Shown one piece after another: positions 9,712 to 41,162 of a DNA stretch of 64,000 bases. Positions within the stretch are counted from its first letter, which is position 1. Every line of letters begins with the position of its first letter. This DNA comes from Flavitalea sp. (GTDB lineage: Bacteria > Bacteroidota > Bacteroidia > Chitinophagales > Chitinophagaceae). The translations under genes were made by a program, and so were the position numbers. The stretch lies in NCBI GenBank assembly GCA_035489435.1, contig DATHKG010000005.1, one strand, 5' to 3'. The notes under the pieces are model-generated. The model saw nothing but the letters and a program-made list of their open reading frames with translations, had not been told where the DNA came from and did not search any database.

Positions 9712-10309
9712 CAGCTATGGAATATTCTTTACAGAGATTGGGCAAAAAAATCCTACTTGATGCAAAAGACTTTCATGATATTTTTGATCAGTTCCAGGAT
9801 GCTGAAATAACGAAATATGGCGCCTTTTACTTTGATGATATGATTTATGTGGTGGACTTTGTCGGGATCAAAGCAAGAAGAGGAAAAAAAGATATGTTGC
9901 TCGTTCAATGCCACTACAAGGAATTAGTGATGTGCCTGCGCAATTAGCTTTAAAGCGGCCGGTTATTTGTAGCTTTAAATATGACGAATACTGGTTTGAT
10001 AAAAAAGTTTCAAAAACGGGACTGATTGATTTTGTCATGACTAAAGGGGCCATGCCAGGCGAAACAGTAGGAGTGATAATAAGCTGGAACCCTGTGAATG
10101 AACAAATCAAATTACTTACTCCCTGGGTTAAATGGGGAAACAAAGGAGTAGCGGTGATAACTAAAGACGCCATGGAACATGTACGGCCCCGTAATCTGCG
10201 TGTAATCGAAGCTGTTGAAAAACCTTCTCCATATAGCAAGCCCTTATTGGACCTGTCAAATAAAATGGCTGCAGAAAATCGAAAAAAGCCGCGAAAAGTA
10301 AAAGCATAG
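9699..10309 (+). other. two overlapping short ORFs (GTG-start 82 aa; 133 aa) in different frames downstream of the TIR-like fragment; possibly remnants of the same disrupted gene
   Basis: Consecutive frames 1, 3, 2. A7 homopolymer runs at 9746-9752 and 9884-9890. No confident domain. Confidence 0.25.
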
Positions 10310-10880: not shown

Positions 10881-13800
10881 ATGGCAGAATTTACTTTTAA
10901 GTTTTATGGTTCGCCTGTTGAAATACCTTCAGAAACCAACCTGCAACTCAGGAGCATACAGCCGGATTTAATCATAACCGAGTACAGAGCCATCACAGTT
11001 CGTTCAGCTGAATCCAAACCGGAAATAATAACAGTCTCAGAAGACACTATTGTGGCCCTTGAGATGAGCAACGATGTTGAATGGCATTACAATAAAGAAG
11101 AATTTGAAGAGTTTCTAGAAAAACAACCTGGTACCCGAAGTGCTGATAATATCCCCGAAGTACCAGGCTTTTTCAGTTCGACGACCAATACCCGGGGATT
11201 CGAAGATATAATTGTGACAAAAGCCTTAAAGGTAATTACTGGCCTGGCAGCAAAGCATACTGCAGAACTCCTGGTAGAAAAAATGGAAGCCAAGCTTGAG
11301 ATAGGCTTACACAGGTTGGATGATAATTTCAAATTTATAAAATTTGATAAGGCAAACATCGAAAACAGCAAACCATACTTGCTGTTTATCCACGGTACTA
11401 ACTCTAACACGAGCGGCGCTTTTAGTGGTTTGAAAAAAAACAAAGCCTTTGATAAGCTATATAAATTCTATGAAGGACGGGTATTGGCATTTGAACACAA
11501 AACCCTTTCAGAGAGCCCGCTGAAGAATGCCACCGATTTATTAACTGCATTGCCGGATCAAATAACACTCGATATTGTTTCTCATTCAAGGGGAGGGCTG
11601 ATTGCGGACCTGCTTGCCCGGTGTAGTAAATCAGGACTCCCATTTGACGACGCCGAACTTAAAATCATCAATGCGAACATGGATTTTCTGCCGCTAAAAA
11701 AGGAAGTAGAAGCAGCTAATCATGCAGCAACTAATAAAAATATCACAGTTCCCAAGATAGTGAGGGTAGCGGCCCCTTCGGCCGGAACGGTGTTGATTGA
11801 CTCGCGGCTTGATAATCTCGTAAATGTATTTTGCAACCTTATAAAACTTATTCCTGGCGCAGCGGCCTGTATGCCTCTGGGACTATTCCTTGATTTTGCC
11901 AGGGCTGTGGTCCGTGAAAGAACGGATATCAATGTATTTCCGGGAGTTGCTGCGCAAATACCCGGTTCGCCGCTTATCAGGCTACTAAATAATCCCAACA
12001 GGGAAATAGAATCTCAATTATTTGTTATTTCAGGCGATGTGGAAGCGAGTGGTATTGTAAAAACCTTGCAGGTAATGTCCACCAACCTTTATTTTGGTGA
12101 AGCGCATGACCTGGTAGTAAACAGCAATTCCATGTTTAAAGGCACTTACAGAAAGACCAATGTTCTTGAACATTTTGAACAGGATCCAGCAGTCAATCAT
12201 TTTAATTACTTTATCAATACCTCCAGCCAGGACGCATTGATTGAGGCTCTTACCGAACCTTCAAAGATCGGAAGCAGCTATCAGAGTCTGGGCATTTCAA
12301 AAACGATTTCAGTTTTTCATGAACGTGGTATAACCGGTAAAAAGCCCCTGGTGTATATCATACCTGGCATTACAAACACCGAGCTGGAATCTACTATTAC
12401 TGATGAAGTTGGCAATACAAGGAATGAAAGATTGTGGATCAATTTTCTTGGAATTGCAACGGGGGCCATTTCCAAACTCAAAGCCGGTAAAGCCGGTATT
12501 AAACCCACTGCAGTGCAGCAGCAGGTATATGGTGAATTGATGAATTATCTGAATACTGATTTTGATGTAAAGCCTTTTCCGTACGACTGGCGACTCGATC
12601 TCGCTGACGCTGGCAATAAGTTGGCTGAGGATATTCAACAGGTGCTTGACAGTAATGAAAGAACCAACAAAGAATTTCACTTTATTACACATTCAATGGG
12701 TGGCCTGGTTCTTAGAGCCATGATTAGTCTACACAACGATCTTTGGAAAACAATCACCGTAAATAAAAAAACAAAAGTGTTGATGCTTGGTGTGCCCAAT
12801 GATGGATCTTATTCGATCATAAGACTCCTCCTGGGAAAGGACGCAGTGATTAAAAAGCTGGCATTGCTTGATTTTGTGCATTCCAAAACTGAGCTGCTGG
12901 AGATTTTTAAGAACTTCACAGGTTTGTTGCAGCTACTGCCCAAAAACGATTCGCGCATATTTGGTGAAGCTTTATGGAAAGAGATGGTTTCAGCCAATAA
13001 CAATGCAGGCGCAGTGCCGTCCGCAGAACAATTAAAAATGGCCGAGGATTTTTTTAACATAATAAAAGATACCGAATTCGACAATGAAATATTCAGGTAT
13101 GTTGCAGGTCAGGCTGACGATACCCCGATAGGTTATACTATTGATAAAATGGAAAACAGAATTTCTTTTATCGGTAGCGCTGAAGGGGACGGAAGGGTTT
13201 TATGGAGCACCATACCGGACGCATTAAAATCAGAAAATGTTTATTACGTCAATACAGACCACGGTAGTATTCCCCAATATGAACAGGGATTTGAAGGTTT
13301 CAGGGATTTGCTACTTAGAGGCAAAACCGATGCGCCGGCATTGTCAAAACAGAGGCCTGTCAATCGGAGCCCTATGGGACCAAAGCAAATGCCCGACAGT
13401 GATTATGTTACCATCCCCAGCGAGTTTGAGTTTACAAATCATCTGCTTAGCAATACAGAACCCGTCAGAAAATCGGTCCCCAAAGATCCCATAGGTGTAA
13501 GCGTTATGAATGGAGACCTGGTGCATTCGAAGTATCCGGTGGTAGTGGGCCATTTTAAAGGAGATGGGATTGTAAACGCAGAAAAGTACCTCGACCAGGC
13601 CCTGGGTTTCAGGTTAAGCGAATATCATTTCATGAATAATTATCCTGGAGAAATCGGAACGCACCTTGTTATCCTGGATGACAACAAAGAAAAAAAGGGC
13701 ACCATGACCTGCGAAGGAGTTGTAGTGGGCCTGGGTGAGTTTGGCGCACTTACAGAAGGCAGGCTCCTGGTCTCTTTAACACAGGCGTTTCTTACACTTG

Positions 13801-16265
13801 CTATCAGGTTCAATGAATTATTGAAGAATAAACAAAATGATCCAAACGATGTGGTCGAGTTTGGTATTTCTGCGCTCACTGTCGGAAGTGATTTTGCCGG
13901 TTTGCGGATAACTACCTCCGTAAAAACAATTTTTCTGGCAGTGCTGCAGGCAAATGAAAAGCTGGATACGATGAGCAGGCGTGAAAGCGCGAAGTTTAAT
14001 TATAAGAAAATCAACCACATTGAAGTGGTTGAAATATACCAGCACAAATCCGTCCAGGTGGGCAGGATCATTGGCGATCTGCTTGTTCAGGACGGGTTTA
14101 ATAATTTCCGTTTTGTGCCACCAGAGATACGCCTGGGATCAGGCGCACTCAGCAGGATTGCAAATGAAAACGTAATGGAAAACTGGCACCGGCTGGAAGT
14201 GACCGTGACTGATAAAAATGATTTCACCAATACCAATAAAAACGATGATGACGATACAGAGAAAAATAGAAAAAGTCCTGCAGGAAATACCTTACCCATC
14301 CGCTTTACCGCACTCACCGATAAGGCCCATGCGGATGAAAATCTATTACCTGCTAACAGGTTGATAGTAGATACACTCATGGAAAGACTTTCAAAACATT
14401 CTAAATGGGACAAAGCATTTTCCCAAACTTTGTATGAATTGCTGATTCCCAATAACTTTAAAGGTTTTGGCTCCAGTTTACATAACCTGGTGCTTATTGT
14501 AGATAAGCATACTGCACGTTACCCCTGGGAATTGCTCCACGATGCTAACGGCATATCAGATAAACCAATGGTGATAAATACCGGTATTGTTCGCCAATTG
14601 AAATCTGGTGAACAACGTGAGAATATTATTATAAACAGTAGTAACCGGGCGTTGGTAATTGGCAACCCTTTTACTGATGGCAGATACCCTTCTCTACCTG
14701 CTGCAGAAATGGAAGCAAAGGCCGTACAGCAAATTTTACTGGACAACGGGCTGGAAACGACACCCAGCATAGCCGAACAGGATATTTACATTATACAGAA
14801 ATTGTTAACCAGGAGTTATAAGATCATTCACATAGCCTCACATGGAATTGTGGGCAAAACCGCCGAAGAAGCTACAGGCGTCATATTTGGCAAGGAAATC
14901 ATTTTTACTGCCGGTGATTTTGACCAGATAAGGGTTGTACCTGAATTTGTATTTATTAACTGTTGCTCATCTGATAAGTACGACCCTGCCATTGCAGAAC
15001 AGATGCAACAGAAGTACCGACTGGCTGCGAGTGTGGGTACTCAATTAATCCAGATGGGCGTAAAAGCTGCGATTGTTACCGGCTGGGAAATTGACGATTC
15101 AGCCGCAAAAACATTTTCTTCATGCTTTTATAAATACATGTTTGAAGGTTATAATTTCGGTGATTCCGTAAGGGAAGCACGTTCGAAAACCTACAGCAAA
15201 CACCCACTTACCAATACCTGGGGCGCTTATCAATGCTACGGAGACCCTTTTTATGCTTTCAAGAATAGCAGCAGTATAAGGAAATTAAAATACAATTTTG
15301 TGTCCCCCATTGAAGTCATTGCTGAAATGGATAATCTGATTGGAGAGATGACCAGCGGATTAAAAAGAAAAGAAAAAAAAGAATGGCAGAAAAAAATTGA
15401 AGACATCATTGATGGCCTGTATTTTTCGTGGCGCCAGAATGCGACAATAATGGAAAAGATTGCATCTGCCTACAGAACGATTGGCTTCTACCAAGATGCC
15501 ATCAAGTACTACGAACAAATTTTTGATCTTGAAAACGCTGTCTATACTGTTAAATCCCTCGAACAGTACTACAATGTAAAAATCCGTTTTGCAATAGATC
15601 AATGGAAGAATAAAAAAATAAATAGTGAGGACGCGTCAAAAATATTTGATAATGCTATTGAGGGATTAAAAAAGTTGAACGGAAACACCCTGGAAAGATA
15701 TAGCCTGATTGCAGCCAGTTACCGTCGTTTTTCTGAAATCAGTAACGACGATATCGCTCACCTGATTGAAGCCGCCAGGTATTATCACCTGGCTTACCAG
15801 CATGGGCTAAAAACAACTGGTTATATCGAGTCTTATCCTTATTTTAACTGGCTGCATTTTGCCATATTACTTGATGGTTACGGCGACGGCGATGATTTCC
15901 TCAAAATACCTGGAAAAAGGGAAGAGCTGGACAAGAAAGCGCTGGACTACGCAAAAAAATCCGATTTGCAAGAACCTAATTTTTCCAAAAAAACAGCAGG
16001 TTCTTCCCATTACATTGCCCTTCTGTTATTAGCCAGCAACGCAGAGGAGATAGACAAATTTTCAACACTAATTATAAATAATTTCGAAGGGGCGTGGAAA
16101 AAGGAAGGCGATGAGAATTCCAGGGATTCTTTTACCAGCTATTTAAGTTCGATCGTTGGGTTAATAAGAAAGCTTAATCCCAAAGAGATGTTGCTCAAAG
16201 AAGAAAAAATGGAATCACTGGAAGCAGTCAAACGCAAGATAGAAACACAATCGCACACCGGCTGA
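10881..16265 (+). CDS. giant multidomain protein: alpha/beta-hydrolase lipase + LCAT-like phospholipase/acyltransferase + CHAT protease + C-terminal helical repeats
   Basis: 1794 aa. Domain 1 (about 11330-11900): LLFIHGTNSNTSGAF oxyanion motif and IVSHSRGG nucleophile elbow. Domain 2 (about 12330-13300): FPYDWRLD plus FITHSMGGLVLR, the LCAT/PGAP1-like signature. CHAT (about 14740-15250): IIHIASHG...FVFINCCSS His/Cys dyad plus LAASVGTQLIQMGVKAAIVTGWEIDD. The C-terminal 350 aa are TPR-like helical. Confidence 0.85.
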   Translation: MAEFTFKFYGSPVEIPSETNLQLRSIQPDLIITEYRAITVRSAESKPEIITVSEDTIVALEMSNDVEWHYNKEEFEEFLEKQPGTRSADNIPEVPGFFSSTTNTRGFEDIIVTKALKVITGLAAKHTAELLVEKMEAKLEIGLHRLDDNFKFIKFDKANIENSKPYLLFIHGTNSNTSGAFSGLKKNKAFDKLYKFYEGRVLAFEHKTLSESPLKNATDLLTALPDQITLDIVSHSRGGLIADLLARCSKSGLPFDDAELKIINANMDFLPLKKEVEAANHAATNKNITVPKIVRVAAPSAGTVLIDSRLDNLVNVFCNLIKLIPGAAACMPLGLFLDFARAVVRERTDINVFPGVAAQIPGSPLIRLLNNPNREIESQLFVISGDVEASGIVKTLQVMSTNLYFGEAHDLVVNSNSMFKGTYRKTNVLEHFEQDPAVNHFNYFINTSSQDALIEALTEPSKIGSSYQSLGISKTISVFHERGITGKKPLVYIIPGITNTELESTITDEVGNTRNERLWINFLGIATGAISKLKAGKAGIKPTAVQQQVYGELMNYLNTDFDVKPFPYDWRLDLADAGNKLAEDIQQVLDSNERTNKEFHFITHSMGGLVLRAMISLHNDLWKTITVNKKTKVLMLGVPNDGSYSIIRLLLGKDAVIKKLALLDFVHSKTELLEIFKNFTGLLQLLPKNDSRIFGEALWKEMVSANNNAGAVPSAEQLKMAEDFFNIIKDTEFDNEIFRYVAGQADDTPIGYTIDKMENRISFIGSAEGDGRVLWSTIPDALKSENVYYVNTDHGSIPQYEQGFEGFRDLLLRGKTDAPALSKQRPVNRSPMGPKQMPDSDYVTIPSEFEFTNHLLSNTEPVRKSVPKDPIGVSVMNGDLVHSKYPVVVGHFKGDGIVNAEKYLDQALGFRLSEYHFMNNYPGEIGTHLVILDDNKEKKGTMTCEGVVVGLGEFGALTEGRLLVSLTQAFLTLAIRFNELLKNKQNDPNDVVEFGISALTVGSDFAGLRITTSVKTIFLAVLQANEKLDTMSRRESAKFNYKKINHIEVVEIYQHKSVQVGRIIGDLLVQDGFNNFRFVPPEIRLGSGALSRIANENVMENWHRLEVTVTDKNDFTNTNKNDDDDTEKNRKSPAGNTLPIRFTALTDKAHADENLLPANRLIVDTLMERLSKHSKWDKAFSQTLYELLIPNNFKGFGSSLHNLVLIVDKHTARYPWELLHDANGISDKPMVINTGIVRQLKSGEQRENIIINSSNRALVIGNPFTDGRYPSLPAAEMEAKAVQQILLDNGLETTPSIAEQDIYIIQKLLTRSYKIIHIASHGIVGKTAEEATGVIFGKEIIFTAGDFDQIRVVPEFVFINCCSSDKYDPAIAEQMQQKYRLAASVGTQLIQMGVKAAIVTGWEIDDSAAKTFSSCFYKYMFEGYNFGDSVREARSKTYSKHPLTNTWGAYQCYGDPFYAFKNSSSIRKLKYNFVSPIEVIAEMDNLIGEMTSGLKRKEKKEWQKKIEDIIDGLYFSWRQNATIMEKIASAYRTIGFYQDAIKYYEQIFDLENAVYTVKSLEQYYNVKIRFAIDQWKNKKINSEDASKIFDNAIEGLKKLNGNTLERYSLIAASYRRFSEISNDDIAHLIEAARYYHLAYQHGLKTTGYIESYPYFNWLHFAILLDGYGDGDDFLKIPGKREELDKKALDYAKKSDLQEPNFSKKTAGSSHYIALLLLASNAEEIDKFSTLIINNFEGAWKKEGDENSRDSFTSYLSSIVGLIRKLNPKEMLLKEEKMESLEAVKRKIETQSHTG

Positions 16266-16396
16266 TAAATTAATCGAGTGTGCTAGAAATCCAACCTGGC
16301 AGGTTAATTTATTATTCAGAGTTTTTACTCAAATGTCCTATTAATGCAATAGTTGTTAAAAGTCTCATGAAAGTAGCAATCACTGTCCAGTCGATA

Positions 16397-17731
16397 CTAT
16401 AGTTTATCGATCGAAATGCTGTAAACATTTTTTTTCCTGTTATTGGTTTGTGTATAAAATGCTTCTGCCTCACAAATGAGTTTGTCGAAATGACAGTAGA
16501 AATTTTCTTTTGAACTATATTCTATGATCGAGTGAACCCATCCATATTTATAATAGTCTACGAACAAGCTAAACGGCTTCGTTTTGCTTTTTTCAGAGCT
16601 CTCAATTATCGGAATAACAGGTATCTGAAATTCACCAACAAAAGCATGTAACTCCTGGGCAATTGATGACGGATCTGTTAGGTCTGCAATGATAAAGCGG
16701 GACATGCCCGCTAATACAGTAATGACTTGTGTGAAGTCTTGGTTCTCACTTTTTTCGAAATCAAAAATTATCGGAATGTATTTTGTCCCGTTTATCTTTT
16801 TATTCGCAAGTTTGTCACGAATATTGTTCAAAAACTCCTTTCTATCATCTCTAAAACGTCCCAATATTAAGACAATTGAAGAATGGGTAGATTTAAAAAC
16901 ATTAGTGAGGTTTTTATTATTTAAGATAAAAAAAAGAAATTGTGCCATACTTAGATCATCCACAGATAAAGTGGTTAACTCCTCATTTTCACTCATTTTG
17001 TAAACTATCTTTAGTTCTTTCTGATCTGCTTGATCCAAATCTTTTATATCCCAGGCTGAGCTCCCGTAAACCTTGCAATTTTTGATTTGAGTTTTCTGGT
17101 CCTGGTCTTTCGTAAACTCCGTCCCAGCGATTTGGCTTCCTTGAAGGTTTGCTCCTGAAAGATTTGCTCCCCAAAGCTTAGTTTTGTAAAAATCCGTTCT
17201 GCAGAAATTTGCTTCTACTAGAGTTGCTTTCATAAGTTTTGCCTCTCCAAGGTTTGCCTCATGAAAGTTTGCCTTTGTAAGATCAACACCCACTAGATTG
17301 GATTGAATGAGATTTGCATTGCTAAAATTAATGCCTTGTAACCCGTTGGATTTAATGCCCTGGTTTTTTTCTTTAATTTTGTCAAAGTTTAGCTCATATA
17401 GAATTGGTCTGATATGAGGATGGTTTACCCGCCATTCGTTCCACGATTGCACACCTCGTGCTAGTTCCTTGATGTGCTTGCGTCGCTTTTTTGCAAACAA
17501 ACATTTTGTGGGATGATTTTTAATGATCTCAATTCCTAAATTGTTGAGGGTTATTCCATGTAAGCCTTTACAAAAATCCTTTTTACCGTCTGCATGAGCA
17601 TAATCATAATAGTATTCCCCATGTTCTTTTATATATGGATATCGTTCCCCTTCGATTTTGATAAAGTTATCATCAAGATCGATAGTTTTTCCTTTATAAT
17701 ATTCTGCCATTTTAAATAATTTTATTATCAA
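16397..17731 (-). CDS. pentapeptide-repeat protein with uncharacterised C-terminal alpha/beta domain
   Basis: 444 aa. Central ANLIQSNLVGVDLTKANFHEANLGEAKLMKATLVEANFCRTDFYKTKLWGANLSGANLQGSQIAGTEF is a pentapeptide repeat. The C-terminal part (IVLILGRF...IPIIFDFEKS...RFIIADLTDPSSIAQEL) alternates beta/alpha like a Rossmann-type fold. Confidence 0.8.
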   Translation of the reverse strand: MIIKLFKMAEYYKGKTIDLDDNFIKIEGERYPYIKEHGEYYYDYAHADGKKDFCKGLHGITLNNLGIEIIKNHPTKCLFAKKRRKHIKELARGVQSWNEWRVNHPHIRPILYELNFDKIKEKNQGIKSNGLQGINFSNANLIQSNLVGVDLTKANFHEANLGEAKLMKATLVEANFCRTDFYKTKLWGANLSGANLQGSQIAGTEFTKDQDQKTQIKNCKVYGSSAWDIKDLDQADQKELKIVYKMSENEELTTLSVDDLSMAQFLFFILNNKNLTNVFKSTHSSIVLILGRFRDDRKEFLNNIRDKLANKKINGTKYIPIIFDFEKSENQDFTQVITVLAGMSRFIIADLTDPSSIAQELHAFVGEFQIPVIPIIESSEKSKTKPFSLFVDYYKYGWVHSIIEYSSKENFYCHFDKLICEAEAFYTQTNNRKKNVYSISIDKL

Positions 17732-18311: not shown

Positions 18312-21300
18312 TTATGTGCCGTTGCTAATCGCCTTCGCAATAGCTTCCAAATGCTCGTTAAAGCTACTCAATTGAATAAGCATTTGACCAGAAGTATCAT
18401 TCTGATCCAACCCCCCAAACTTGTTGTTCTTTCGAAAAACTGTTTTGATTTGTTCCCAGCGTTCGAGTTCAGGTGCGGTAATATAACCGCCAAGTTCTTT
18501 TAGCTTAAGCAGGTTTGCCTCAGCATCCGAGGTTAATGTTTGTGATTCACTTTCGTAGTGGGAGAGGATCAGTGTTCGAACCTCTTCGATGTTCATCAAT
18601 GGTACAACTTTGCCGACCATCTTGTTCATGTTCCGATAAGACCCCTGCAATTTAAAAGAGGGCTCTGTGCGATAAGCATCTTTCATGGCAGCGCTTGCGA
18701 TGTATTGCTGGTTCACGCGGATCACAATGTCGCGAATCATTAAGATGGACCGAAGAACAGCGAGCGCATCATCGACTTCCTGGCCCTGGTAATTGCCTTC
18801 AAGAGCGGGCAGCATTTCCGCGGATGTTTCAATGTAGTTGATGAGTTTATGAAGATCCTCAAAGCTTCGGTTTGAGATTTTTTGCAGGTAACGGTTTTCG
18901 GCAACGGCGTTTTCAATTAAGCTAAGGTTGAATAGATGATCGGAAGTGCCAATTACATCACCAAGGTTATAAACATCAGCCCGGTTTGCAAGCATGTCGG
19001 GAATCTTGAATTGCTCACCGCTTTCTGTGTAGGGGTTACCCGCCATTACCACGCAAAAACGTTTTCCGCGCAAATCATAAGTCTTGCTATCACCTTCGAA
19101 GATACCATCCATCTTGCGCTGACCATCGGCCAGGGAGATAAACTTTTGCAGGAACTCGGGACTGCAATGCTGGATATCATCCAGGTAAAGCATAACGTTA
19201 TCGGCCATCTCAAAAGCCAGGTTGATCTTTTTGAGTTCTTCACGGGCACCGGAAGTGGTTGCTTCGACGGGATCGATAGATGTGATACGATGACCAATGC
19301 TTGGCCCATTGATTTTCACGAAATGCAGACCCATCGTTTTGGAGAGGTACTCCATCAAGGTGGTTTTACCATAACCTGGAGGGGAGATCAGGAGTAGCAT
19401 ACCCATACGGGCTGTGCGTTTATCATCACCAGCTGCACCGATCTGCTTTGCGAGATTTGAACCGATCAAAGGAAAATATATTTCATTGATCAGGCGGTTT
19501 CGTACAAATGAACTCAAGACGCGCGGTTCAAACTCACCGATCTTCAAAGCATGTTTGTAGCTTTTTGTAAGGTCGCTCTTGACTTTGTTGAAGGCTTCAA
19601 AAGCGGGAACAACGGTCGAGGTGTAGTTCTCCATCTTTGAAAGGAAAGAATGGAAGTTCAGGTTGTATTGCTGCCCTGAAATGACAGCATGCGTGCCCTT
19701 CAATCCATTAATCTGGCTTGAGTCTGAAGTGGCGCGCTCTTTATAAGGATGGCTCTTGAATAGAAGTAGACAGGCGGCTTCATCAATATAGGTTGCATCA
19801 TACCCGCCTTGCTGCAAAAATGCCTGCAGCCAATTCTTTATAATCTGGAACCGGTCTTCAACACTGAATCCTGCATTTTCTGTATCCTTTGCAAAAACAT
19901 CAAAACGTTTTTGCGCTTGGAGGAATTCATTAAATCCTTTTTTGATGTGGATGGCCTGCTCACTGGCAGTGAAACTTAGGTTTGATGCAAATTCCTCATA
20001 AAGATATTGTGCAACATCATTAATGTGTGCAATGACGTATGTATCGTTAGCTCCGTTAGCTCCGTGAGCGCCGGTAACTCCGGCAACTCCGGCAAGCCCT
20101 ATGGCACCTGCAGTATTTGAAGCATTGAACGTATTTTTGCCATTACCATTATGTGTATTAGTAGAAATGGCATTAACGGTGTTGGATGTAATGGAAGTGC
20201 TTGCAGAATTGCTTCCGTTTGTGTTATTTGAAGCGCTGGTAGTGTCGCCAGTGTTAAGACCTACATAAAGCCTGTACTTATTTACAATCTCATTTACCAC
20301 ATAAGCGGACTGCCTGCTTCCTGGAAAACTTTTCTCAATAGAATGAGCTGCAGATATTAACTGCGACAATTTATTTGTAGCTGCTTCATCTATCTGTAAC
20401 CAAAATAGCTGGGCGGCTACGCGAACTGAAGGCGGATAATTCAGGATACCCAGGCCTTCCCGAAGAGAACGAAGTTGCTCAAATATCAGGATCGCATCAG
20501 TATTATGAACACCTTTTAAATAAGCGGCTGCGTAATCACGCTCGACTTTGTCATTGATATAGCTGATATGATCAAAATTATTTTGACCTGCAGTACCGAT
20601 AGCGCCTGCAGTCCCTGCAGTCCCTGCAGTGCCCGCAGTACCTGAAGTGTCATTGGCACCACCTGTACCATTTGTAACAACTGCGGCATCTGTACTTCGG
20701 TGAATAGTAGATGCCACGCCTGTCAAGGAATTTTCATAAGCCTGATAAGCCTGGTATGCCAGATATTCACCACGGTATACCGACGTGTTCTCCGAAATCA
20801 ACTCCTGCTCCCAGATAAAACGATATTGATATAATGCCTCGGCTTTAACCTCCTTATAAAAACTCGTACCGATCAAATGGAAAAACAGCTTCTCATCTCT
20901 CCGGACTATGCTTAAGTCAAGCACCTGTTTATTCACTACGAACTTATAATCACCTAGTGCAATGATGTTCTGGCCATCCACGAACAAATCGGTCTTGTCT
21001 TTTAAGTTGCGAAGTGCATCTTCCTGTGCAACCTTTAATAAGTTCTCAAGATTTTCGGCTTTTGCAACATCGCCCAGCGCAGCAAGGTCAGCGACAAGAC
21101 CGCGTATTTTGCCAATCATTAAATCAGCTGAGAAAAACGCATATATGCTTTCCTTGCTATCAAACGATCGCGCCTTGTTTTCGACGTTCTTCAGAACACG
21201 TAATCCGATTTGTTCCAATGAAGCAGAACGTTTGTTGATCTGCGCGATCAACATTTCCTTCTTGCCATTAAAGGCCTTGATCACTTCGTCACGCTTATCT

Positions 21301-23504
21301 GCAATCTTCAAAACAAAATCAGAAAAATCAGCAAACTTGCTTTCAAGCTCTTCCACCTGCACACTCACCTTGGTGAAATAATCCTCGCATTTTTCAGGAG
21401 AGGTAGAGAGATCAAGGAAGGAAACTATGCCCTGTTCAAGTAAAGTTAGTTGTGCGTAGAACTCGCCGGTTGCTTCCTTGCTTCGCAATGAGTTCAGCGT
21501 TCGGGCCAGGTCGGCCTTCACCTCGTTCAGCGATGCAAAGATCAGGGAGATCTTTTCAATGATTCGAGTGCTCTGCGTTGTGTCTTCTATTTTCAGGCTG
21601 TTCAGGATATCAATCAACATCTCCAGTTCGCCCGCAATACCTTTTACCGCGGCTTCTATGGCTAAAGCATCAATGGCCTTGGTAACACCGGTAACAGCTG
21701 CCTTTTGGGCGACAACCTTCTGCTCGTATGGTTCCAGTGCCTTGTCTTTTAGCAAAAAGTTTATGGTGTCTTGGGAAAGTGTCGTGTTATAACCATCGAG
21801 CACTTTCTGCAGTTCCTCAACCTTATCGAGCGCAACATATTTTACGTTTCGCAGATCAATCACCGCACCCTGCATGTTGCGGGTGTTTGCAAGCATCTGC
21901 ACCAGTTGATCAAGGGAGGTCACCACATTGTTCTTGATATCAATCACCAGCTGATCAACGCGTTTCTGCATTGTCGCCAATGTCTCGCGTGCATGTTGGC
22001 GCTGTGCCTGCACTTTTGCAAATTCATCAATAGCGGTATTCGCAATGTCTTTTATCGAAGACAACGGTGTAGCTAAATCAAAAGTCGCCGGATCACGTAT
22101 CCAGAAATAAGAATCGATAACATCATTCGCTTTTTTCTGGATGTCTTCATAAAGCCGCGAATAAGAATCCTCCTTGCTCAACAACTGGATGATCTCCTGG
22201 CTCTCAGACATCGCACTCACAATATCCTTGTTCCCGATCTTATACAGCACATTGTCGTGCATGCCATCGTTTTCCTTCAACACAGCTGTATAAGGTGTTT
22301 GCCAGATCTGCACCTGGTGATGACGCACAGCTTCTGCTTCGGTCCGGAAATAAATGAGCTTGCCATCATTAAAAACTGTAAAGCCATTACAGATGATCGG
22401 GGTTTCAACCTGCTGTACAATGATGTTATAAGACATCAGCACATAAGTGTTACTCCGAACCTGGTAAAATATGTAAAGGATGTCTTCACCATTCGGGGAA
22501 GCCACACTGCGGATAAATTCGAGGCCAGTCAGATCGGATTCAAACAATTTATAATCGCCGTTCTGGAGATAATATCCGTTTGGAAAGATTACACCCTGGT
22601 TATCCGGCAACAAAATACCCGCATCAAGCAACATTTTGATTGGCTTCACTTCCCGGGTGCGTGCATTAAATATATAGGAACGCGCCTCTTCCTGGTAAGG
22701 CTTTATCTTCAACGCCACCAGGTTACCAAGATCAGCATAATAATATTCGGCATCATCGAGCTGCTGATCCTTGTTCAACACCGGTTCATGATAGATACCG
22801 CGACCGGATGCGGTATTGTTTTCAACTTTAAAGGTTATATCACCTCCAATGGCTTCAATAAACACCTTGTCGAGAATCGAGATATGCGGGTAAGCACCCA
22901 GGCGACGATCTTCCAAATTTGTTTTGATCCAACGGAAATCATGCTGTGGTGCGCGTTGCACCTCATGGATAGACCGGTCATCTACGTAAGTAAGCTGGTT
23001 GTTTTTGATCAGCCATTTAAACGCCTTTCGATCATCGACCGTTTTCCCGGTCTGAAAAATCATATACAGGTAGTTCCCGCTTTGGAAAAACCTGGCGAAC
23101 AATGAATCGCGGTAATATTTATAGAGATTGGTAAAGTCAGTAACAAAAGCTGCATCATCAATCAGCGTTAAAGGCTGCGGTTCAAAATGATCATTGGCGA
23201 ACTTATAGATACTGAACACATCGCTCAGCTTGATATCTTCCTTCAGACCAAACTGCACATTGTACCCGAATATACAAAGATCGCCCAGGGCAATAATGCC
23301 CCGCGATTCCCCATGATTTTCAGTTGTGATCCTTTGGTTAGCGATCAGCTCAAATCCATCAGAACTGAATACCTCATGCCTGGCTACATTTAGCTTGGCC
23401 AGTCTCGCGGCAAGTTCGATGCGCTGCTCGTTCAGCCTGTTCCGGATAATCTCGTAAGTTCCGGAATCAAGTGCAGATCCCGTCTTTTGCTCTGTTACTG
23501 CCAT
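18312..23504 (-). CDS. giant AAA_5 (MoxR/McrB/dynein-like) ATPase-domain protein with two collagen-like G-X-Y repeat stretches
   Basis: 1730 aa. Walker A LLLISPPGYGKTTLMEY, Walker B VMLYLDDIQH, then RFCVVMAGNPYTESGEQFKIPDMLANRADVYNLGD (AAA_5 pattern). Upstream repeats GTAGTAGTAGTAGAIGTAG and GAIGLAGVAGVTGAHGANGAN. Long coiled-coil centre. The N-terminal 500 aa are unassigned. Confidence 0.85.
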   Translation of the reverse strand: MAVTEQKTGSALDSGTYEIIRNRLNEQRIELAARLAKLNVARHEVFSSDGFELIANQRITTENHGESRGIIALGDLCIFGYNVQFGLKEDIKLSDVFSIYKFANDHFEPQPLTLIDDAAFVTDFTNLYKYYRDSLFARFFQSGNYLYMIFQTGKTVDDRKAFKWLIKNNQLTYVDDRSIHEVQRAPQHDFRWIKTNLEDRRLGAYPHISILDKVFIEAIGGDITFKVENNTASGRGIYHEPVLNKDQQLDDAEYYYADLGNLVALKIKPYQEEARSYIFNARTREVKPIKMLLDAGILLPDNQGVIFPNGYYLQNGDYKLFESDLTGLEFIRSVASPNGEDILYIFYQVRSNTYVLMSYNIIVQQVETPIICNGFTVFNDGKLIYFRTEAEAVRHHQVQIWQTPYTAVLKENDGMHDNVLYKIGNKDIVSAMSESQEIIQLLSKEDSYSRLYEDIQKKANDVIDSYFWIRDPATFDLATPLSSIKDIANTAIDEFAKVQAQRQHARETLATMQKRVDQLVIDIKNNVVTSLDQLVQMLANTRNMQGAVIDLRNVKYVALDKVEELQKVLDGYNTTLSQDTINFLLKDKALEPYEQKVVAQKAAVTGVTKAIDALAIEAAVKGIAGELEMLIDILNSLKIEDTTQSTRIIEKISLIFASLNEVKADLARTLNSLRSKEATGEFYAQLTLLEQGIVSFLDLSTSPEKCEDYFTKVSVQVEELESKFADFSDFVLKIADKRDEVIKAFNGKKEMLIAQINKRSASLEQIGLRVLKNVENKARSFDSKESIYAFFSADLMIGKIRGLVADLAALGDVAKAENLENLLKVAQEDALRNLKDKTDLFVDGQNIIALGDYKFVVNKQVLDLSIVRRDEKLFFHLIGTSFYKEVKAEALYQYRFIWEQELISENTSVYRGEYLAYQAYQAYENSLTGVASTIHRSTDAAVVTNGTGGANDTSGTAGTAGTAGTAGAIGTAGQNNFDHISYINDKVERDYAAAYLKGVHNTDAILIFEQLRSLREGLGILNYPPSVRVAAQLFWLQIDEAATNKLSQLISAAHSIEKSFPGSRQSAYVVNEIVNKYRLYVGLNTGDTTSASNNTNGSNSASTSITSNTVNAISTNTHNGNGKNTFNASNTAGAIGLAGVAGVTGAHGANGANDTYVIAHINDVAQYLYEEFASNLSFTASEQAIHIKKGFNEFLQAQKRFDVFAKDTENAGFSVEDRFQIIKNWLQAFLQQGGYDATYIDEAACLLLFKSHPYKERATSDSSQINGLKGTHAVISGQQYNLNFHSFLSKMENYTSTVVPAFEAFNKVKSDLTKSYKHALKIGEFEPRVLSSFVRNRLINEIYFPLIGSNLAKQIGAAGDDKRTARMGMLLLISPPGYGKTTLMEYLSKTMGLHFVKINGPSIGHRITSIDPVEATTSGAREELKKINLAFEMADNVMLYLDDIQHCSPEFLQKFISLADGQRKMDGIFEGDSKTYDLRGKRFCVVMAGNPYTESGEQFKIPDMLANRADVYNLGDVIGTSDHLFNLSLIENAVAENRYLQKISNRSFEDLHKLINYIETSAEMLPALEGNYQGQEVDDALAVLRSILMIRDIVIRVNQQYIASAAMKDAYRTEPSFKLQGSYRNMNKMVGKVVPLMNIEEVRTLILSHYESESQTLTSDAEANLLKLKELGGYITAPELERWEQIKTVFRKNNKFGGLDQNDTSGQMLIQLSSFNEHLEAIAKAISNGT
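20044..20115 (-). repeat. tandem 9-bp coding repeats (G-X-Y triplets) inside giant ATPase gene, copy 2
   Basis: gttagctcc gttagctcc gtgagcgcc ggtaactcc ggcaactcc ggcaagccc on the plus strand. Confidence 0.7.
20588..20648 (-). repeat. tandem 9-bp coding repeats (GTA)n inside giant ATPase gene, copy 1
   Basis: cctgcagtc cctgcagtc cctgcagtg cccgcagta on the plus strand, encoding (GTA)4 on the minus strand. Confidence 0.7.
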
Positions 23505-23547
23505 ATTAAACCGAGATAAGGAAATTGATATAAATCCGTGATTGGCG

Positions 23548-23706
23548 GATTCAATATTGATTCATTAAAAAACGATGCCAGATGATTTTTTTTGGAATGA
23601 ATGATTTATTGAATGTTACTATTGAACGGTCTTGTTGAATCCTGAATAATTCATTGAATGATACAATTGAATGATCTTATAAATCCTGAATGACCTTATT
23701 GAATCC
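23548..23706. promoter_or_regulatory. upstream region of giant ATPase gene with clustered TTGAAT/CTGAATG motifs, palindrome TCAATATTGA and a T8 tract
   Basis: TTGAAT at 23609, 23635, 23654, 23667 and 23698. CCTGAAT at 23641 and 23685. TCAATATTGA at 23551-23560. T8 at 23586-23593. Confidence 0.35.
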
Positions 23707-23728
23707 GCAAAAATTATAGAACAAACTA

Positions 23729-23765
23729 AACAGTAGCTGCACTCATAAAAAGCTGCAGCTACTGT
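23729..23765 (-). terminator. hairpin (13-bp stem AACAGTAGCTGCA / TGCAGCTACTGTT) downstream of flotillin gene
   Basis: Perfect 13-bp inverted repeat with an 11-nt loop, 17 bp past the flotillin stop. Followed on the minus strand by TTTAGTTTGTTCTAT. Confidence 0.5.
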
Positions 23766-23781
23766 TACTATTTAGAATCTC

Positions 23782-25824
23782 TTATGCACCCAACTTTTTA
23801 TTCGACAAACCAAGACTCTGCGCCAATTTTCCAAGATCCATGATCGCCGGCAGATCGGTGTCCGAACTATTCGCCTGCATCTTCATCAACACTGCAGAGA
23901 TAGTCAGGTTCTTCAGATCATTGGTCGAGATATTGTATTTTGAAGCAAAGGAGCGGATACGTTCCAGCAATTTCCCGTCCCCGTTACCATTGCCATCACC
24001 TATCAAAGCGTTTTTGATATCAGTAGCATGTTCGCTTTCATTGATCAAACGATCGAAGCCCCTGGCATTTGAGATCTGGTTAACAATATTCTGGAAGAAC
24101 ATGGTCTCACCACCAACGATATCGATCCTCGCACTCTTAAGCGCCTCGCCCAAAACGCCAGCCTGGGCCATAGCGATATCTTTATGTATGTTGATACCAG
24201 CAAGTGCAATGTCGCGATCCTTCGCCAATAACAACTTGAACTCTTCGTGATCCTTACCAACACCATCCAGCTTTTTCATCGCTTCAGCCTTATGTTCAAT
24301 ACCCGCAGCTTCAGCAAAAGCTTTTTCCCTGGTGACCTCAGCCTCAGCAAGACCTTGCTTACGACGTGCATCGGCCATTTTTTCAACGATACCGGCATCG
24401 GCCGTACCCTGGCGCTCGGAAGCTTCAGCCTTTGCAATCATTACTTCAGCTTCAGACAAACCAAGCGTTGCATCTTCACGAGCCTGGGCTTCAGCCAGTA
24501 TCTTACGGGCTTCGGCTTCCTTAACTGAAGCTTCTTTTTTCGCTTCAGCATCAATGATGGTTTGTTTACCGCGTTCTTCAGCGGCTTTTTTATCAGCTTC
24601 AGCAGCTTTAACAGTATAGATCAGTTTTTCTTCAGCCATGCGTGTAGCATTGGTAATACCCACACTTTTCTGGCGTTCAACTTCACGGAAAGATTCGATG
24701 TCTTTCATATTCTGTTGTTCTTCCACCACGCCTTTTTCAAGCTTAACCCTTTCGCGGATCACATCCTGGATGTTCTTCTTTTCAACTTCAATATTACGGT
24801 CGCGCTCGATCTGGGCAAGGGTTACGATTTTTTCTCTTTCGGTTGCTTCCAATGCACGATCTTTCTCTACTCTTTCCGTTTCAACCGCATTTGTACGTTC
24901 TTTATTTTTTGCAGCAATGATGATCTGGCGAAGTTTGTTTTCTTCCTGTATGGCCAGGCTTTCATCGGTCTTTATCCGCACTGTTTCTGATTTCAGTCTT
25001 TCTTCTTCACGAACCTTCAGGATCTCTGCCTGTTCGCGTGACTTTACATTATCAATCTCACGTTTTTGTTTTTCTTCTTTTTCGGCTTGTTGTCTTTCCA
25101 GTTCAAGAATGGCTTCACGTGCCTCCACGTTTTGTTTTTTGATCACCTTTTCCTCATCACGACGGATCAGGTTTGCGTGGATATTCTGTGCGGCAGTGAG
25201 TTCAGTAATCTTGCGGATACCCTGTGAATCAAGGATATTACCGGGGCTGAGGAACTTCATTTCAGTTTGTTCGAGATAGTCAATGGCACAGTCGTCCAGG
25301 ATATAACCATTCAGATCTGTACCAATGATACCTAGTATCTCGTCCCTGAATTCACGACGGGCTTCATACAAGGAGATAAAATCAAACTTCTTACCAACTG
25401 TTTTCAAGGCTTCTGAGAACTTTGCTTCAAACAAATTGGTCAGCGTATCCGTATCAGAAGCACGTTCGGTGCCGATGATCTGTGCAACGTTTAATACGTC
25501 TTCCACATTTTTATTTACGCGAACGAAAAACGCGACCTTGATGTCTGCCCGGATATTATCCTTGCATATCAGTCCTTCGAATTCCAGGCGGTCGATTTGT
25601 AACTTCTTAACAGAGATGTCCATGATCTCCATTTTATGAAGAATCGGGATCACATACATACCCTGGTTAAATGCTACTTTACCACCGCCAACACCGGTTC
25701 TCACGATGGCCTTGCCTTGCGGGATCTTTTTATAGAAGCTGGCAAAGGCAGCAAGTAAAATGAAGAGTAAAAACGCGATACCACCAACGATGAGGAGAGT
25801 GATTCCGCCAAGAGATTCTAGCAT
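23782..25824 (-). CDS. flotillin-like SPFH/band-7 protein (FloT/YqiK family)
   Basis: 680 aa. N-terminal TM helix, then an SPFH domain, then a very long E/A/K-rich coiled coil (AEAEVTREKAFAEAAGIEHKAEAMKK...). Confidence 0.85.
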   Translation of the reverse strand: MLESLGGITLLIVGGIAFLLFILLAAFASFYKKIPQGKAIVRTGVGGGKVAFNQGMYVIPILHKMEIMDISVKKLQIDRLEFEGLICKDNIRADIKVAFFVRVNKNVEDVLNVAQIIGTERASDTDTLTNLFEAKFSEALKTVGKKFDFISLYEARREFRDEILGIIGTDLNGYILDDCAIDYLEQTEMKFLSPGNILDSQGIRKITELTAAQNIHANLIRRDEEKVIKKQNVEAREAILELERQQAEKEEKQKREIDNVKSREQAEILKVREEERLKSETVRIKTDESLAIQEENKLRQIIIAAKNKERTNAVETERVEKDRALEATEREKIVTLAQIERDRNIEVEKKNIQDVIRERVKLEKGVVEEQQNMKDIESFREVERQKSVGITNATRMAEEKLIYTVKAAEADKKAAEERGKQTIIDAEAKKEASVKEAEARKILAEAQAREDATLGLSEAEVMIAKAEASERQGTADAGIVEKMADARRKQGLAEAEVTREKAFAEAAGIEHKAEAMKKLDGVGKDHEEFKLLLAKDRDIALAGINIHKDIAMAQAGVLGEALKSARIDIVGGETMFFQNIVNQISNARGFDRLINESEHATDIKNALIGDGNGNGDGKLLERIRSFASKYNISTNDLKNLTISAVLMKMQANSSDTDLPAIMDLGKLAQSLGLSNKKLGA

Positions 25825-25825
25825 G

Positions 25826-25912
25826 GTTAAGAGTTAAGAGGGTGAGTGTTTAGTTATGAGTTATGAGTTAGGAGTGATGAGTGAGTTATGAGTTCTTTGA
25901 GGATGAGTTTGT
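25826..25912. repeat. tandem heptamer-like repeats (GAGTTAT/GAGTTAA/GAGTGAT) in nfeD-flotillin intergenic spacer
   Basis: gttaagagttaagagggtgagtgtttagttatgagttatgagttaggagtgatgagtgagttatgagtt, about 10 degenerate units. Confidence 0.6.
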
Positions 25913-26019
25913 GTTTTATTTGGGATAAGGTTGAATGAAAAAATATAATTATGCGATGATGATAGGAATTAGACGTGATTATGGTTAAAAGGATATCAAT
26001 TGTAGAGGGAAATCATGGG

Positions 26020-26700
26020 TTATACGATGTTATTTAGGGTTATTTCGGGAACCACATAATAAAACCTCCCATCTTTTGATTCATCAGCGATCATAACGTC
26101 GGCGTTGTAATTGATTGTATCGCCGGATTTGGATTTTACGTTTAGGCGGATCACGTCATTGTTGATTACAAGTTCTGCGGCGCCGATCTTGTCGCCGGTT
26201 ACTGAGGAGCGCATTTTTGCTATGCGTCCCAGAAGGTCCAGTGATTCATCTCCGTTATATCCCATGGCTTTATAAACTTTTACTAATGGTTTGGTAACAA
26301 AACGGGTTACAAAAAACGCGAGAGCGAAAACAGGTATTAAGATCAGGGCTGATTTCCAGCCCCAGCTTGCCATTCCGAGAAACACAGAACTAACGAGGGT
26401 GATAATCCAGGCGATAAATTTAAAGGTTGAATATACTACCATGAATGGCACTTTGCCGACATTCACATAGTCCATCGCTTTTGAAAACCATCCTTGCTCA
26501 GCGCTGACTTCACCATCCACATCAACATCGGTATCAGGACTAACATCAACACCGGTATCAACCTCCGGTGCAAAGTCAAGGTCGCCCAGGAAATCACCGG
26601 CTATAAGGGTAAACACCCAGTATAGTGCAGTGATGCCCGTTAGTACGGTCATTATGCCATTTGAAAGCGGGTGAAACAGGAGGTTAAAGAAGTCTGACAT
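26020..26700 (-). CDS. NfeD/YqiJ-like membrane protein (flotillin partner)
   Basis: 226 aa. An acidic stretch, then hydrophobic helices, then a C-terminal OB-like segment. Immediately upstream of flotillin on the same strand, as in yqiJK and yuaFG operons. Confidence 0.6.
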   Translation of the reverse strand: MSDFFNLLFHPLSNGIMTVLTGITALYWVFTLIAGDFLGDLDFAPEVDTGVDVSPDTDVDVDGEVSAEQGWFSKAMDYVNVGKVPFMVVYSTFKFIAWIITLVSSVFLGMASWGWKSALILIPVFALAFFVTRFVTKPLVKVYKAMGYNGDESLDLLGRIAKMRSSVTGDKIGAAELVINNDVIRLNVKSKSGDTINYNADVMIADESKDGRFYYVVPEITLNNIV

Positions 26701-26730
26701 GACAGGTTAAGGTTAATGTTGTTGTCTAAG

Positions 26731-26795
26731 TAATCGGCAAATGTTTGACTAAGTGATCGGTAAATGTTTGTCCAAGTGATTGGCCAAGGGCATAA
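26731..26795. repeat. about 22-bp direct repeat x2.5 (CTAAGTRATCGGYAAATGTTTG) in pspA-nfeD spacer
   Basis: ctaagtaatcggcaaatgtttg actaagtgatcggtaaatgtttg tccaagtgattggccaag. Confidence 0.55.
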
Positions 26796-26811
26796 GGTAA
26801 TAACTGTTTTT

Positions 26812-27528: not shown

Positions 27529-27532
27529 AACA

Positions 27533-33171: not shown

Positions 33172-33174
33172 TTA

Positions 33175-34836: not shown

Positions 34837-34949
34837 GGGTTTATAAGATGAAAGAGAAAGTTATGAACAAATCCAGGGTGAATAATGCCATGAGAAGCTT
34901 CCTGAAAAACACAGCCTTCGCAGCCGCGGGACGGTTTTGAATCGCAATA

Positions 34950-37781: not shown

Positions 37782-37831
37782 CCCGGCATCGTTGTAATAG
37801 CAAGTCTTTTCACCTGCAAAACTTATTTATT

Positions 37832-39214: not shown

Positions 39215-39243
39215 TAATGCTGACCCTAAAATGAGTTATTGAT

Positions 39244-41096: not shown

Positions 41097-41162
41097 ATTG
41101 GAAACTTCAGTTGATTTCAAATCATAAAATAATAAAAGGGCAATGACCTCTAAAAGATAGAA

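Follow-up and report, generated by a model that had tools for sequence, protein, structure and literature searches.

A 64,000-nucleotide stretch of DNA from Flavitalea sp. (contig DATHKG010000005.1 of assembly GCA_035489435.1; the whole stretch is referred to below as the window) carries a gene for a 1794-amino-acid protein in which, by prediction, two alpha/beta-hydrolases, a macro-fold domain, a CHAT caspase-fold protease and a helical repeat tail of the TPR-S type are joined in a single chain. We propose, at what we judge to be roughly an even chance, that this protein is an intracellular single-chain conflict effector, namely a sensor-gated protease/lipase belonging to a Thoeris-like or caspase-type system. 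Much firmer than any detail of its ligand or of the cleavage events is the broader conclusion that it acts as an intracellular conflict effector and is not a cargo of the extracellular contractile injection system (eCIS) encoded next to it.

The open reading frame (ORF) is the only long one in its interval, as an earlier note on this DNA had stated, and its translation, which contains the motifs YDWR, HIASHG and NCCSS, is 100% identical to a Flavitalea sp. database entry (P0001) named 'DUF7379 domain-containing protein'. A hydropathy scan of the protein revealed no N-terminal signal-like or transmembrane stretch, in agreement with the description in that note of a chain without signal peptide, and the protein looks cytoplasmic; its peak 19-residue hydropathy mean (1.63, at residue 313) falls inside the first hydrolase. 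The chain can be divided into six predicted parts: an N-terminal domain, a DUF7379 hydrolase, an LCAT-like hydrolase, a macro-fold domain, a CHAT protease and a TPR-S tail (Table 1). Two of these, the macro-fold domain (~residues 871-1110) and the separate N-terminal domain (residues 1-166), had been missed in the earlier note. Pfam gives no match for the N-terminal domain, and the good structure model obtained for it matches no fold in the PDB.

The two serine-hydrolase domains that had been proposed before are both recovered by Pfam, as DUF7379 and LCAT, although their nucleophile elbows follow the pattern xHSxGG (SHSRGG in hydrolase 1, THSMGG in hydrolase 2) and not the strict GxSxG and GHSMGG motifs given at the time. 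The DUF7379 match begins at residue 167 (E 4.4e-40, 138 bits against a cut-off of 33), and both HGTxS and HSRGG are invariant among the homologues. The same hydrolase contains a conserved hydrophobic insert at residues ~313-345 (11817-11915), the part of the protein with the highest hydropathy, which could serve as a lid or as a loop in contact with the membrane. The match to LCAT (PF02450) at residues 563-709 (E 2.1e-8, 34.3 bits against a cut-off of 21) aligns only the central 147 residues, corresponding to profile positions 87-225 of 392, while PGAP1 and DUF676, the latter put forward in the earlier note for checking together with LCAT and CHAT, give weaker matches that are confined to the nucleophile elbow of hydrolase 2. 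The residues S605, D770 and H794 of this second hydrolase are invariant and occur in the order typical of alpha/beta-hydrolases, the Asp and the His being assigned by conservation and spacing.

The CHAT protease, identified earlier by its HIASHG...NCCSS dyad, is matched by Pfam over essentially the complete profile (residues 1179-1455, profile positions 2-289 of 289; E 4.8e-27, 95.6 bits against a cut-off of 24). What had been described as a TPR-like tail corresponds to Pfam TPR-S (Tetratricopeptide Repeats-Sensor), which the Flavitalea protein matches with 29.1-30.8 bits (cut-off 27.6) and which is present as a precomputed match in most homologues; compared with solved structures, the tail matches designed TPR proteins only. 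A search by sequence returned no solved homologue for either hydrolase, for the CHAT domain or for the macro-like domain (best E 0.16).

Between the hydrolases and the protease, the domain at ~871-1110 was found to have a macro fold. By sequence it is nearest to the N-terminal domain of M17 leucyl aminopeptidases, the Pfam family Peptidase_M17_N matching this region in 11/30 members with a best E of 9e-6. The motifs NGDL...VVGHFxGDGI and LIGSGYGGL, which may correspond to parts of an ADP-ribose pocket, are conserved in the family and lie at strand ends. The domain is a candidate for a regulatory domain that binds a ligand.

The functional residues were followed in alignments of 28 and then 120 full-length homologues of ~30% identity. 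In hydrolase 1, H171-G172, S236, D410 and H440 are each found in 120/120 homologues, and the same holds for D569-W570-R571, S605, D770 and H794 of hydrolase 2; in the CHAT domain, H1321-G1322 and C1362 are present in 120/120 and C1361 in 118/120. Because the catalytic residues are retained in 120/120 homologues, the three enzymes appear to be under selection to remain active. A further set of conserved residues consists of arginines outside the enzymatic domains. R41 and R105 are invariant and R86 occurs in 116/120 homologues, all three in parts of the N-terminal domain predicted to be loops; R482 is found in 99/120, embedded in an inter-hydrolase linker that is otherwise unconserved; and R829, likewise surrounded by a variable linker, is present in 120/120 and followed by G, S, T or A in 115/120. 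Taken over R41, R86, R105, R482 and R829, the next residue is usually Gly, Ser or Asn. Many bacterial clan-CD proteases cleave after Arg, and we infer from the pattern that these five arginines are candidate processing sites; an Arg specificity of the CHAT protease is only suggested by the conserved Arg-Gly/Ser motifs.

The C-terminal half of the protein also occurs as a separate unit. When sub-domain profiles were applied to 141 further representatives, the canonical six-part form dominated, the set comprising two real architectures and a few rare variants. A stand-alone form consisting of the macro-like domain, CHAT and TPR-S (~900-990 amino acids) makes up 14/141 of these representatives; TPR-S is precomputed for it as well, and complete genes were found in three loci (L087, L088, L089). 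The first of these (L087, 2017-15907), on plasmid pRL31b3 of Rhizobium leguminosarum, encodes a stand-alone module of 936 amino acids between two TIR-nSTAND1-WD40 genes (1322 and 1473 amino acids). A GH108 lysozyme-like protein with a peptidoglycan-binding domain is encoded downstream of the module in this locus. Among the rare variants, the metagenomic protein P0190 (1560 amino acids) consists of a 238-residue N-terminus, the macro-like domain, CHAT, a weak trypsin-like match, TIR_2 and an NPHP3-like region, and is thus a direct fusion of the macro-like-CHAT module to a TIR domain. The idea that many N-terminal effector types are mounted on a constant C-terminal module was rejected, as the matches of intermediate length are mostly incomplete gene calls of the canonical form.

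Relatives of the Flavitalea protein were detected in at least 597 of 185,579 species genomes, with one genome scanned per species. Among the matches listed, most belong to Bacteroidota, the others coming from Nitrospirales, Methylomirabilis, Acidobacteriota, Chloroflexia, Verrucomicrobiota and Beta-, Gamma- and Deltaproteobacteria (including Azotobacter and Thauera). In the database, each of the best 120 relatives has a length of 1747-1893 amino acids and the same set of domains. Used alone, the macro-like domain picks out 1704 representative clusters at E<=1e-3, 1438 at 1e-10 and 933 at 1e-30. Plasmid copies are found in Azotobacter, in clinical isolates of Paracoccus yeei, and in Ensifer, Burkholderia and Rhizobium, the Azotobacter plasmid copy adjoining type I restriction-modification genes, Fic genes and insertion sequence elements. 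The patchy distribution across unrelated phyla, in combination with the plasmid copies, fits an accessory, horizontally moving gene. In Azotobacter chroococcum DSM 2286 (L061, 1135-15211), two tandem paralogues of the gene are located in one locus, with a metacaspase-like gene before the first and a ThsB-like TIR gene (PADLOC 3.7e-35) between the two.

We clustered the neighbouring ORFs of the related loci all against all, without bias towards any family, and found no universal partner gene. Of the 136 genes directly next to family members, more belong to TIR_2 (8) than to any other Pfam family, with Peptidase_C14 (6) in second place. With an iterated TIR profile, 20 TIR ORFs were detected in 18/80 related loci, in several arrangements and in genomes of Bacteroidota, Nitrospirota-type metagenome-assembled genomes, Acidobacteriota, and Beta-, Gamma- and Deltaproteobacteria. 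All of the 19 TIR ORFs with a measurable distance lie less than 4 kb from the gene, where 53% of the surveyed flank is further out; with this internal control, the binomial p is ~6e-7 counted by ORFs and ~1e-6 counted by loci. Gaps between the gene and a TIR gene of the same orientation are as short as 4 bp (L005, from Aquimarina agarilytica ZC1, with the TIR gene downstream), 13 bp (L058, betaproteobacterial) and 38 bp (L055). The confinement to 4 kb, the short gaps and the shared orientation point to operons rather than a loose sharing of genomic islands. Several partner TIR proteins match the ThsB models of PADLOC (at 3.8e-22 and 3.7e-35), and the partners include small ThsB-like proteins consisting of the TIR domain only.

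Caspase-fold proteases form a second group of neighbours. In ~13 non-Bacteroidota loci the adjacent upstream gene, in the same orientation, encodes a C14 metacaspase-like or C11 clostripain-like protease, which suggests protease cascades, and metacaspase-gene-TIR triplets are present in four loci (L042, L052, L058, L061). Four neighbouring genes carry TPR-S themselves (E 1e-9 to 1e-25), together with an N-terminal region whose motifs, on inspection, look like those of nucleoside deoxyribosyltransferases. Beside the closest named relative, which shares 67% identity with the Flavitalea protein (L081, 10171-19723), we found a 1178-amino-acid fusion of Peptidase_C14 to DUF7379, a 634-amino-acid CHAT protein, an nSTAND1 NTPase and a further Peptidase_C14 protein; the DUF7379 hydrolase thus pairs with caspases in other architectures too. 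A deltaproteobacterial member (L030) is followed 337 bp downstream by a TIR-phospholipase fusion (15512-17020), the phospholipase part of which matches PADLOC models with the name 'Effector/Phospholipase' (2e-48).

In the window itself, the most informative neighbour is a TIR-like fragment that the earlier note had mentioned in passing. The pentapeptide-repeat gene named there as the other flank is present, but of the several TIR-like fragments only one lies near the gene. Searched with a TIR profile built from the TIR neighbours of family members, the remnant at 9427-9711 covers profile positions 4-62 of 136 only; as just the first part of the TIR domain remains, the region in which the profile consensus carries its conserved Glu motif is lost. 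The remnant is most similar (39-42% identity) to the TIR genes that adjoin family members in two related loci (L051, L006), and it gives no Pfam match at E<=10. We read it as a decayed partner gene. The ORFs at 9699-10309 were considered as a continuation of this TIR gene and rejected, being similar to no TIR protein in the related loci. They (9699-10309, + strand), like an overlapping ORF on the opposite strand (9868-10239), are short, have neither a Pfam match nor a significant match in the loci, and are probably decayed gene remnants.

Across the whole window, the TIR profile gave one further match, an intact TIR gene (51326-51892) whose product is 37% identical to the TIR protein adjoining a family member in Aquimarina. 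An intact TIR gene in one operon with the large gene, the mark of a Thoeris system, was not found in this window. The intact TIR gene follows, 5 bp later, a gene for a 537-amino-acid membrane protein with hydrophobic helices that has no Pfam or PADLOC match; the pair (49707-51892, + strand) lies in a stretch of low GC content (0.37-0.385), is followed by two LuxR-type regulators, and appears to be a Thoeris-like system of its own, in which the membrane effector is unclassified.

The kinds of system to which the protein can be compared, that is TIR-coupled effectors, pairs of caspase and hydrolase, and TPR-gated CHAT proteases, are already known. The domain combination, which the earlier note could not match to a described system, is not unique but that of a large conserved family, annotated in public records as 'DUF7379 / CHAT domain-containing protein'. 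Its logic, in which a caspase is combined with an alpha/beta-hydrolase and TPR-S is tied to TIR, has been discussed by comparative genomicists. No paper describing the family itself was found, and 'DUF7379' did not occur in our literature search; the fusion, the macro-like insert, the size of the family and its linkage to TIR genes are not described in the literature searched.

A CHAT protease controlled by TPR repeats is known from the Craspase protein Csx29 (TPR-CHAT) of type III-E CRISPR systems. The Flavitalea protein shares with Csx29 the combination of CHAT and TPR repeats, but differs in that the TPR region follows the CHAT domain, that no CRISPR or gRAMP genes are found among the neighbours examined, and that no solved CHAT protein is detectable by sequence. 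For the second hydrolase, LCAT and lysosomal phospholipase A2 are the closest comparison, based on the profile match, on YDWR, on the nucleophile elbow and on a Ser and an Asp that are 165 residues apart (164 in LCAT); unlike these enzymes it is part of a bacterial multidomain protein, and only the 147 central residues align.

The closest resemblance on the side of TIR signalling is to the Thoeris systems. In type IV Thoeris (ThsB and ThsE), a caspase-like protease is activated by the cyclic ADP-ribose (cADPR) isomer N7-cADPR and was assayed on the peptide EEKAR-AMC (2025 preprint, 10.64898/2025.12.03.692087). Our family likewise has a caspase-fold executing protease that is TIR-coupled in a subset of loci, some of the partner TIR proteins match ThsB, and the Arg-ending assay peptide of ThsE, a protein compared here by its description, is compatible with the conserved Arg motifs. 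In contrast to type IV Thoeris, the CHAT domain lies within a 200-kDa chain together with two hydrolases, a macro-fold domain and TPR-S, and most family members, including the Flavitalea protein, have no intact adjacent TIR gene. Type II Thoeris effectors bind His-ADP-ribose via a Macro domain, and, according to the same preprint, the TPR domain of the type VIII effector ThsI presumably perceives cADPR and had earlier been predicted to function in TIR signalling (10.64898/2025.12.03.692087). Both presumed kinds of sensor, the macro fold and a TIR-linked TPR region, are found together in the Flavitalea protein, the latter comparable to that of ThsI if the ThsI domain belongs to the TPR-S family; the macro-like domain, however, resembles the aminopeptidase N-terminal domain by sequence, and the output domains are entirely different, ThsI being a CMP-hydrolase.

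For their ternary conflict systems, Kaur et al. report that wherever a caspase-superfamily domain occurs, an alpha/beta-hydrolase gene lies next to it, and they propose that constant caspase modules release effectors by auto-proteolysis (eLife 2020, PMC7159879). Caspase modules combined with macro domains and repeats have also been described by this group (Kaur, Burroughs, Iyer and Aravind). The Flavitalea protein resembles their MoxR-vWA-VMAP and EACC1/EACC2 'constant caspase' systems (eLife 2020 and 2021) in the pairing of caspase and alpha/beta-hydrolase and in the proposed logic of sensing followed by auto-proteolytic effector release, and the neighbours of its relatives include the Peptidase_C14-DUF7379 fusion and nSTAND1 genes. 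It differs from them in carrying the hydrolases and the protease in one chain, with the macro-like domain and TPR-S added, and MoxR, vWA, VMAP and EACC1 were found neither among the neighbours in the window nor, for the 136 adjacent genes, in the 25 most frequent Pfam families.

Combining these observations, we propose the following mechanism. The architecture, the conserved active sites, the macro fold, the distribution of the family, the lack of eCIS linkage and the statistical and fusion links to TIR are results of the analysis; the ligand, the activation of the protease, the sites of cleavage, the lipid substrate and the killing of the cell are inferred. The C-terminal half (macro-fold domain, CHAT and TPR-S) would constitute the control module, and the two N-terminal hydrolases (DUF7379 and LCAT-like) the output enzymes, which presumably attack membrane phospholipids. 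TPR-S and/or the macro-like domain would receive a cue of infection or stress, for which the macro fold, the TPR-S domain and the TIR linkage make a TIR-made nucleotide derived from ADP-ribose the most plausible candidate. The cue would turn on the CHAT protease, which may then cleave after Arg, possibly at the Arg-Gly/Ser sites in the N-terminal domain and the two linkers and possibly in other proteins of the cell. The hydrolases freed or activated in this way would damage the membrane and halt the cell, by abortive infection or programmed death. As the TIR gene adjoining the Flavitalea gene has decayed, its product would either use a TIR protein from elsewhere, such as the intact one encoded 35 kb away, or sense the cue directly. 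In its complete form, as a widespread TIR-coupled effector in which the sensor binds an ADP-ribose derivative, CHAT cuts its own chain at Arg-Gly/Ser, two phospholipases destroy the membrane and most members are orphan receivers of signals from TIR proteins encoded elsewhere, the proposal is tentative and rather unlikely to hold in every element.

Several observations weigh against it. Around 78% of the related loci (62/80) have no TIR gene within 10 kb, the TIR adjoining the gene in the window is a dead fragment only, and many neighbours of the relatives are housekeeping genes (PFK, SRP54, ribosomal protein S16, sigma-70, FolB). Pfam Macro (PF01661) matches 0/30 members, which places the macro-fold domain closer to the leucyl aminopeptidase N-terminal domain than to canonical Macro domains; that aminopeptidase domain is not known to bind ADP-ribose, and the glycine-rich loop (GDGI) is presumably shortened in comparison with the canonical motifs. 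The TPR-S score of the Flavitalea protein is only just above the cut-off. The lipid substrate is proposed from Pfam LCAT similarity over 147 residues, and DUF7379 is a family without known substrate. The conserved arginines could be structural and not cleavage sites. PADLOC and NCBIfam have no model for the protein, PADLOC returning one spurious helix-turn-helix match. Finally, the family is absent from the text and four supplementary files of a systematic survey of TIR systems, searched for CHAT, LCAT, TPR-S and the Pfam accessions (10.64898/2025.12.03.692087).

The alternative that fares best is a self-contained one-protein device for abortive infection or cell death, in which TPR-S or the macro-like domain senses a phage or stress protein or a metabolite directly, while the nearby TIR genes are independent defence genes or downstream NADase effectors. 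We regard this as less likely than the proposed reading. It would account for the 62/80 loci that lack a TIR gene within 10 kb although the gene itself is intact and retains every catalytic residue, for the stand-alone forms without a TIR neighbour in L088 and L089, for the presence of a mere TIR remnant in the window, and for the aminopeptidase-like sequence of the macro-like domain; moreover, some of the neighbouring TIR proteins are large fusions of the TIR-STAND-WD40 or TIR-phospholipase kind, whose TIR domain may be the effector and not the signal maker. It is harder to reconcile with the placement of all 19 TIR ORFs within 4 kb of the gene, several of them in apparent operons with gaps of 4-38 bp and the same orientation, with the direct TIR fusion in P0190, and with the small ThsB-like TIR-only partners.

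We consider it improbable that the protein is a regulated housekeeping or developmental enzyme without a role in conflict, for instance one that remodels membrane lipids under the control of proteolysis and a macro-bound metabolite. LCAT-family enzymes do have normal roles in the lipid metabolism of eukaryotes, many neighbours are ordinary metabolic or housekeeping genes, and no defence model recognises the protein; but the gene, detected in at least 597 of 185,579 species genomes, is patchily distributed over unrelated phyla and present on plasmids, its neighbours include TIR, caspase and STAND genes which, like TPR-S, are typical of conflict systems, and tandem paralogues occur in L061.

The earlier note had read the protein as a toxin or a protease-activated abortive-infection effector and had associated it with the eCIS. 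The former part of this reading agrees with a protease-linked conflict effector, but the eCIS association does not stand. We compared the 8 eCIS proteins of the window, along with the other window neighbours, to the related loci by tblastn (80 loci, 44/80 of which contain the full 10 kb upstream) and by phmmer (89 loci). Sheath-like matches were found in only 2 of the 89 loci, as a gene in L024 and a fragment in L065, neither in an eCIS operon, and the tube, Pvc16 and remaining window eCIS proteins matched in 0/89; the sheath-like gene of L024 is isolated, being flanked by oppositely oriented genes and preceded by one unrelated to Pvc16. The closest relatives are located among unrelated genes: copper oxidase, caspase and STAND genes beside the 67%-identical protein, and sigma-70, FolB and peptidase M1 genes beside the 59%-identical one, without eCIS in either case. 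That the protein occurs this widely apart from eCIS genes, in at least 597 species genomes, is the very situation the note had named as speaking against its interpretation. In the window, the gene lies outside the eCIS operon, divergent from it and past its 5' end, with gene remnants in between, at a distance of 1858 bp on the opposite strand (1.86 kb in the note). An N-terminal packaging signal, suggested there for checking, is not apparent, the N-terminal domain having neither a Pfam cargo-domain match nor a match to a solved fold. The reading as a toxin or cargo with a functional link to the adjoining eCIS, loaded into it or co-regulated with it, is therefore largely refuted and very improbable. 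In its favour, the protein shares large size and toxin-like enzymatic domains with the cargo toxins of Afp/PVC-type eCIS, which are known to include very large multi-enzyme toxins; its gene is 1858 bp away from the first gene of the eCIS in this one genome; and a distant relative (L024) has a sheath-like gene 2.6 kb downstream. Against it, conservation of the linkage is absent, family members are found in phyla and on plasmids without a contractile injection system nearby, and no cargo-type N-terminal domain was found. The protein is thus not to be counted as eCIS cargo.

The eCIS operon (1505-9022, - strand) runs off the start of the window, so that the baseplate, spike and cargo genes lie beyond it, and includes three ORFs without a significant Pfam match (7053-8366, 4537-5565 and 3422-4495). 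On the other side of the large gene, the window's own neighbours, that is the pentapeptide-repeat protein, a DUF3686 ATPase and a PspA cluster, recur in none of the related loci. Four genes at 18312-27633 (- strand) encode a 1730-amino-acid DUF3686-DUF7902-AAA ATPase, a 680-amino-acid protein without Pfam match, a YqiJ-like membrane protein and PspA/IM30, a cluster that may be a membrane-stress module. A region for carbohydrate use follows (30076-49439, + strand), with a TonB-dependent receptor carrying CarboxypepD_reg, a sodium:solute symporter and an alpha-L-rhamnosidase; it is unrelated to the large gene, as is a hybrid sensor kinase/AraC regulator at 58787-61588 (- strand). A scan for promoters and terminators was uninformative, with 29 sites against 24 expected, Bacteroidota promoters being outside the coverage of the models.

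Table 1. Positions in the window of the large gene, its predicted domains and candidate sites, and selected neighbouring genes.
Feature	Position	Strand	Remarks
Complete gene	10881..16265	+	sole long ORF there; ATG start; 1794 codons; 1794 amino acids, roughly 201 kDa
N-terminal domain (residues 1-166)	10881..11378	+	mixed beta/alpha; R41, R105 invariant, R86 near-invariant
Alpha/beta-hydrolase 1 (Pfam DUF7379, PF24096)	11379..12245	+	HGTNS oxyanion motif; putative triad S236/D410/H440
R482 codon (R-G/N motif), linker between the hydrolases	12324..12326	+	candidate processing site
Alpha/beta-hydrolase 2, LCAT-like	12348..13325	+	PGI(T/M)G, YDWR, THSMGG elbow; putative triad S605/D770/H794
R829 codon (P-V-x-R-G/S motif), linker between LCAT-like and macro-fold domains	13365..13367	+	candidate processing site
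Macro-fold domain (~residues 871-1110)	13491..14210	+	candidate ligand-binding regulatory domain
CHAT caspase-fold protease domain	14301..15260	+	predicted catalytic H1321-G1322, C1361-C1362
C-terminal helical repeat region with Pfam TPR-S (PF20308; residues 1537-1658)	15288..16262	+	
TIR-gene remnant	9427..9711	+	co-oriented, 1.17 kb upstream of the large gene; TIR profile E 4.4e-8
Intact ThsB-like TIR_2 gene, 188 amino acids	51326-51892	+	PADLOC ThsB 3.5e-35; 35 kb from the large gene
eCIS Pvc16_N gene	8369-9022	-	first gene of the operon; starts 1858 bp from the ORF
eCIS sheath	5605-6999	-	Pfam
eCIS tube proteins, three	1505-3389	-	Pfam
Pentapeptide-repeat gene	16397-17731	-	neighbour of the large gene

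For the window, the outcome is a useful negative in that the protein can be taken off the list of eCIS cargo. If the proposed function is correct, the family would represent a new class of effector in bacterial TIR signalling, one that joins caspase-like proteolysis, as in type IV Thoeris, to an attack on phospholipids, as by the phospholipases of CBASS, and the recurring pairing of caspases with alpha/beta-hydrolases, which has been noted but never explained, would gain a concrete, testable example. The family, with ~1400 representative clusters, at least 597 species and plasmid copies, would then be a priority target that offers natural two-gene operons and clear targets for mutation.

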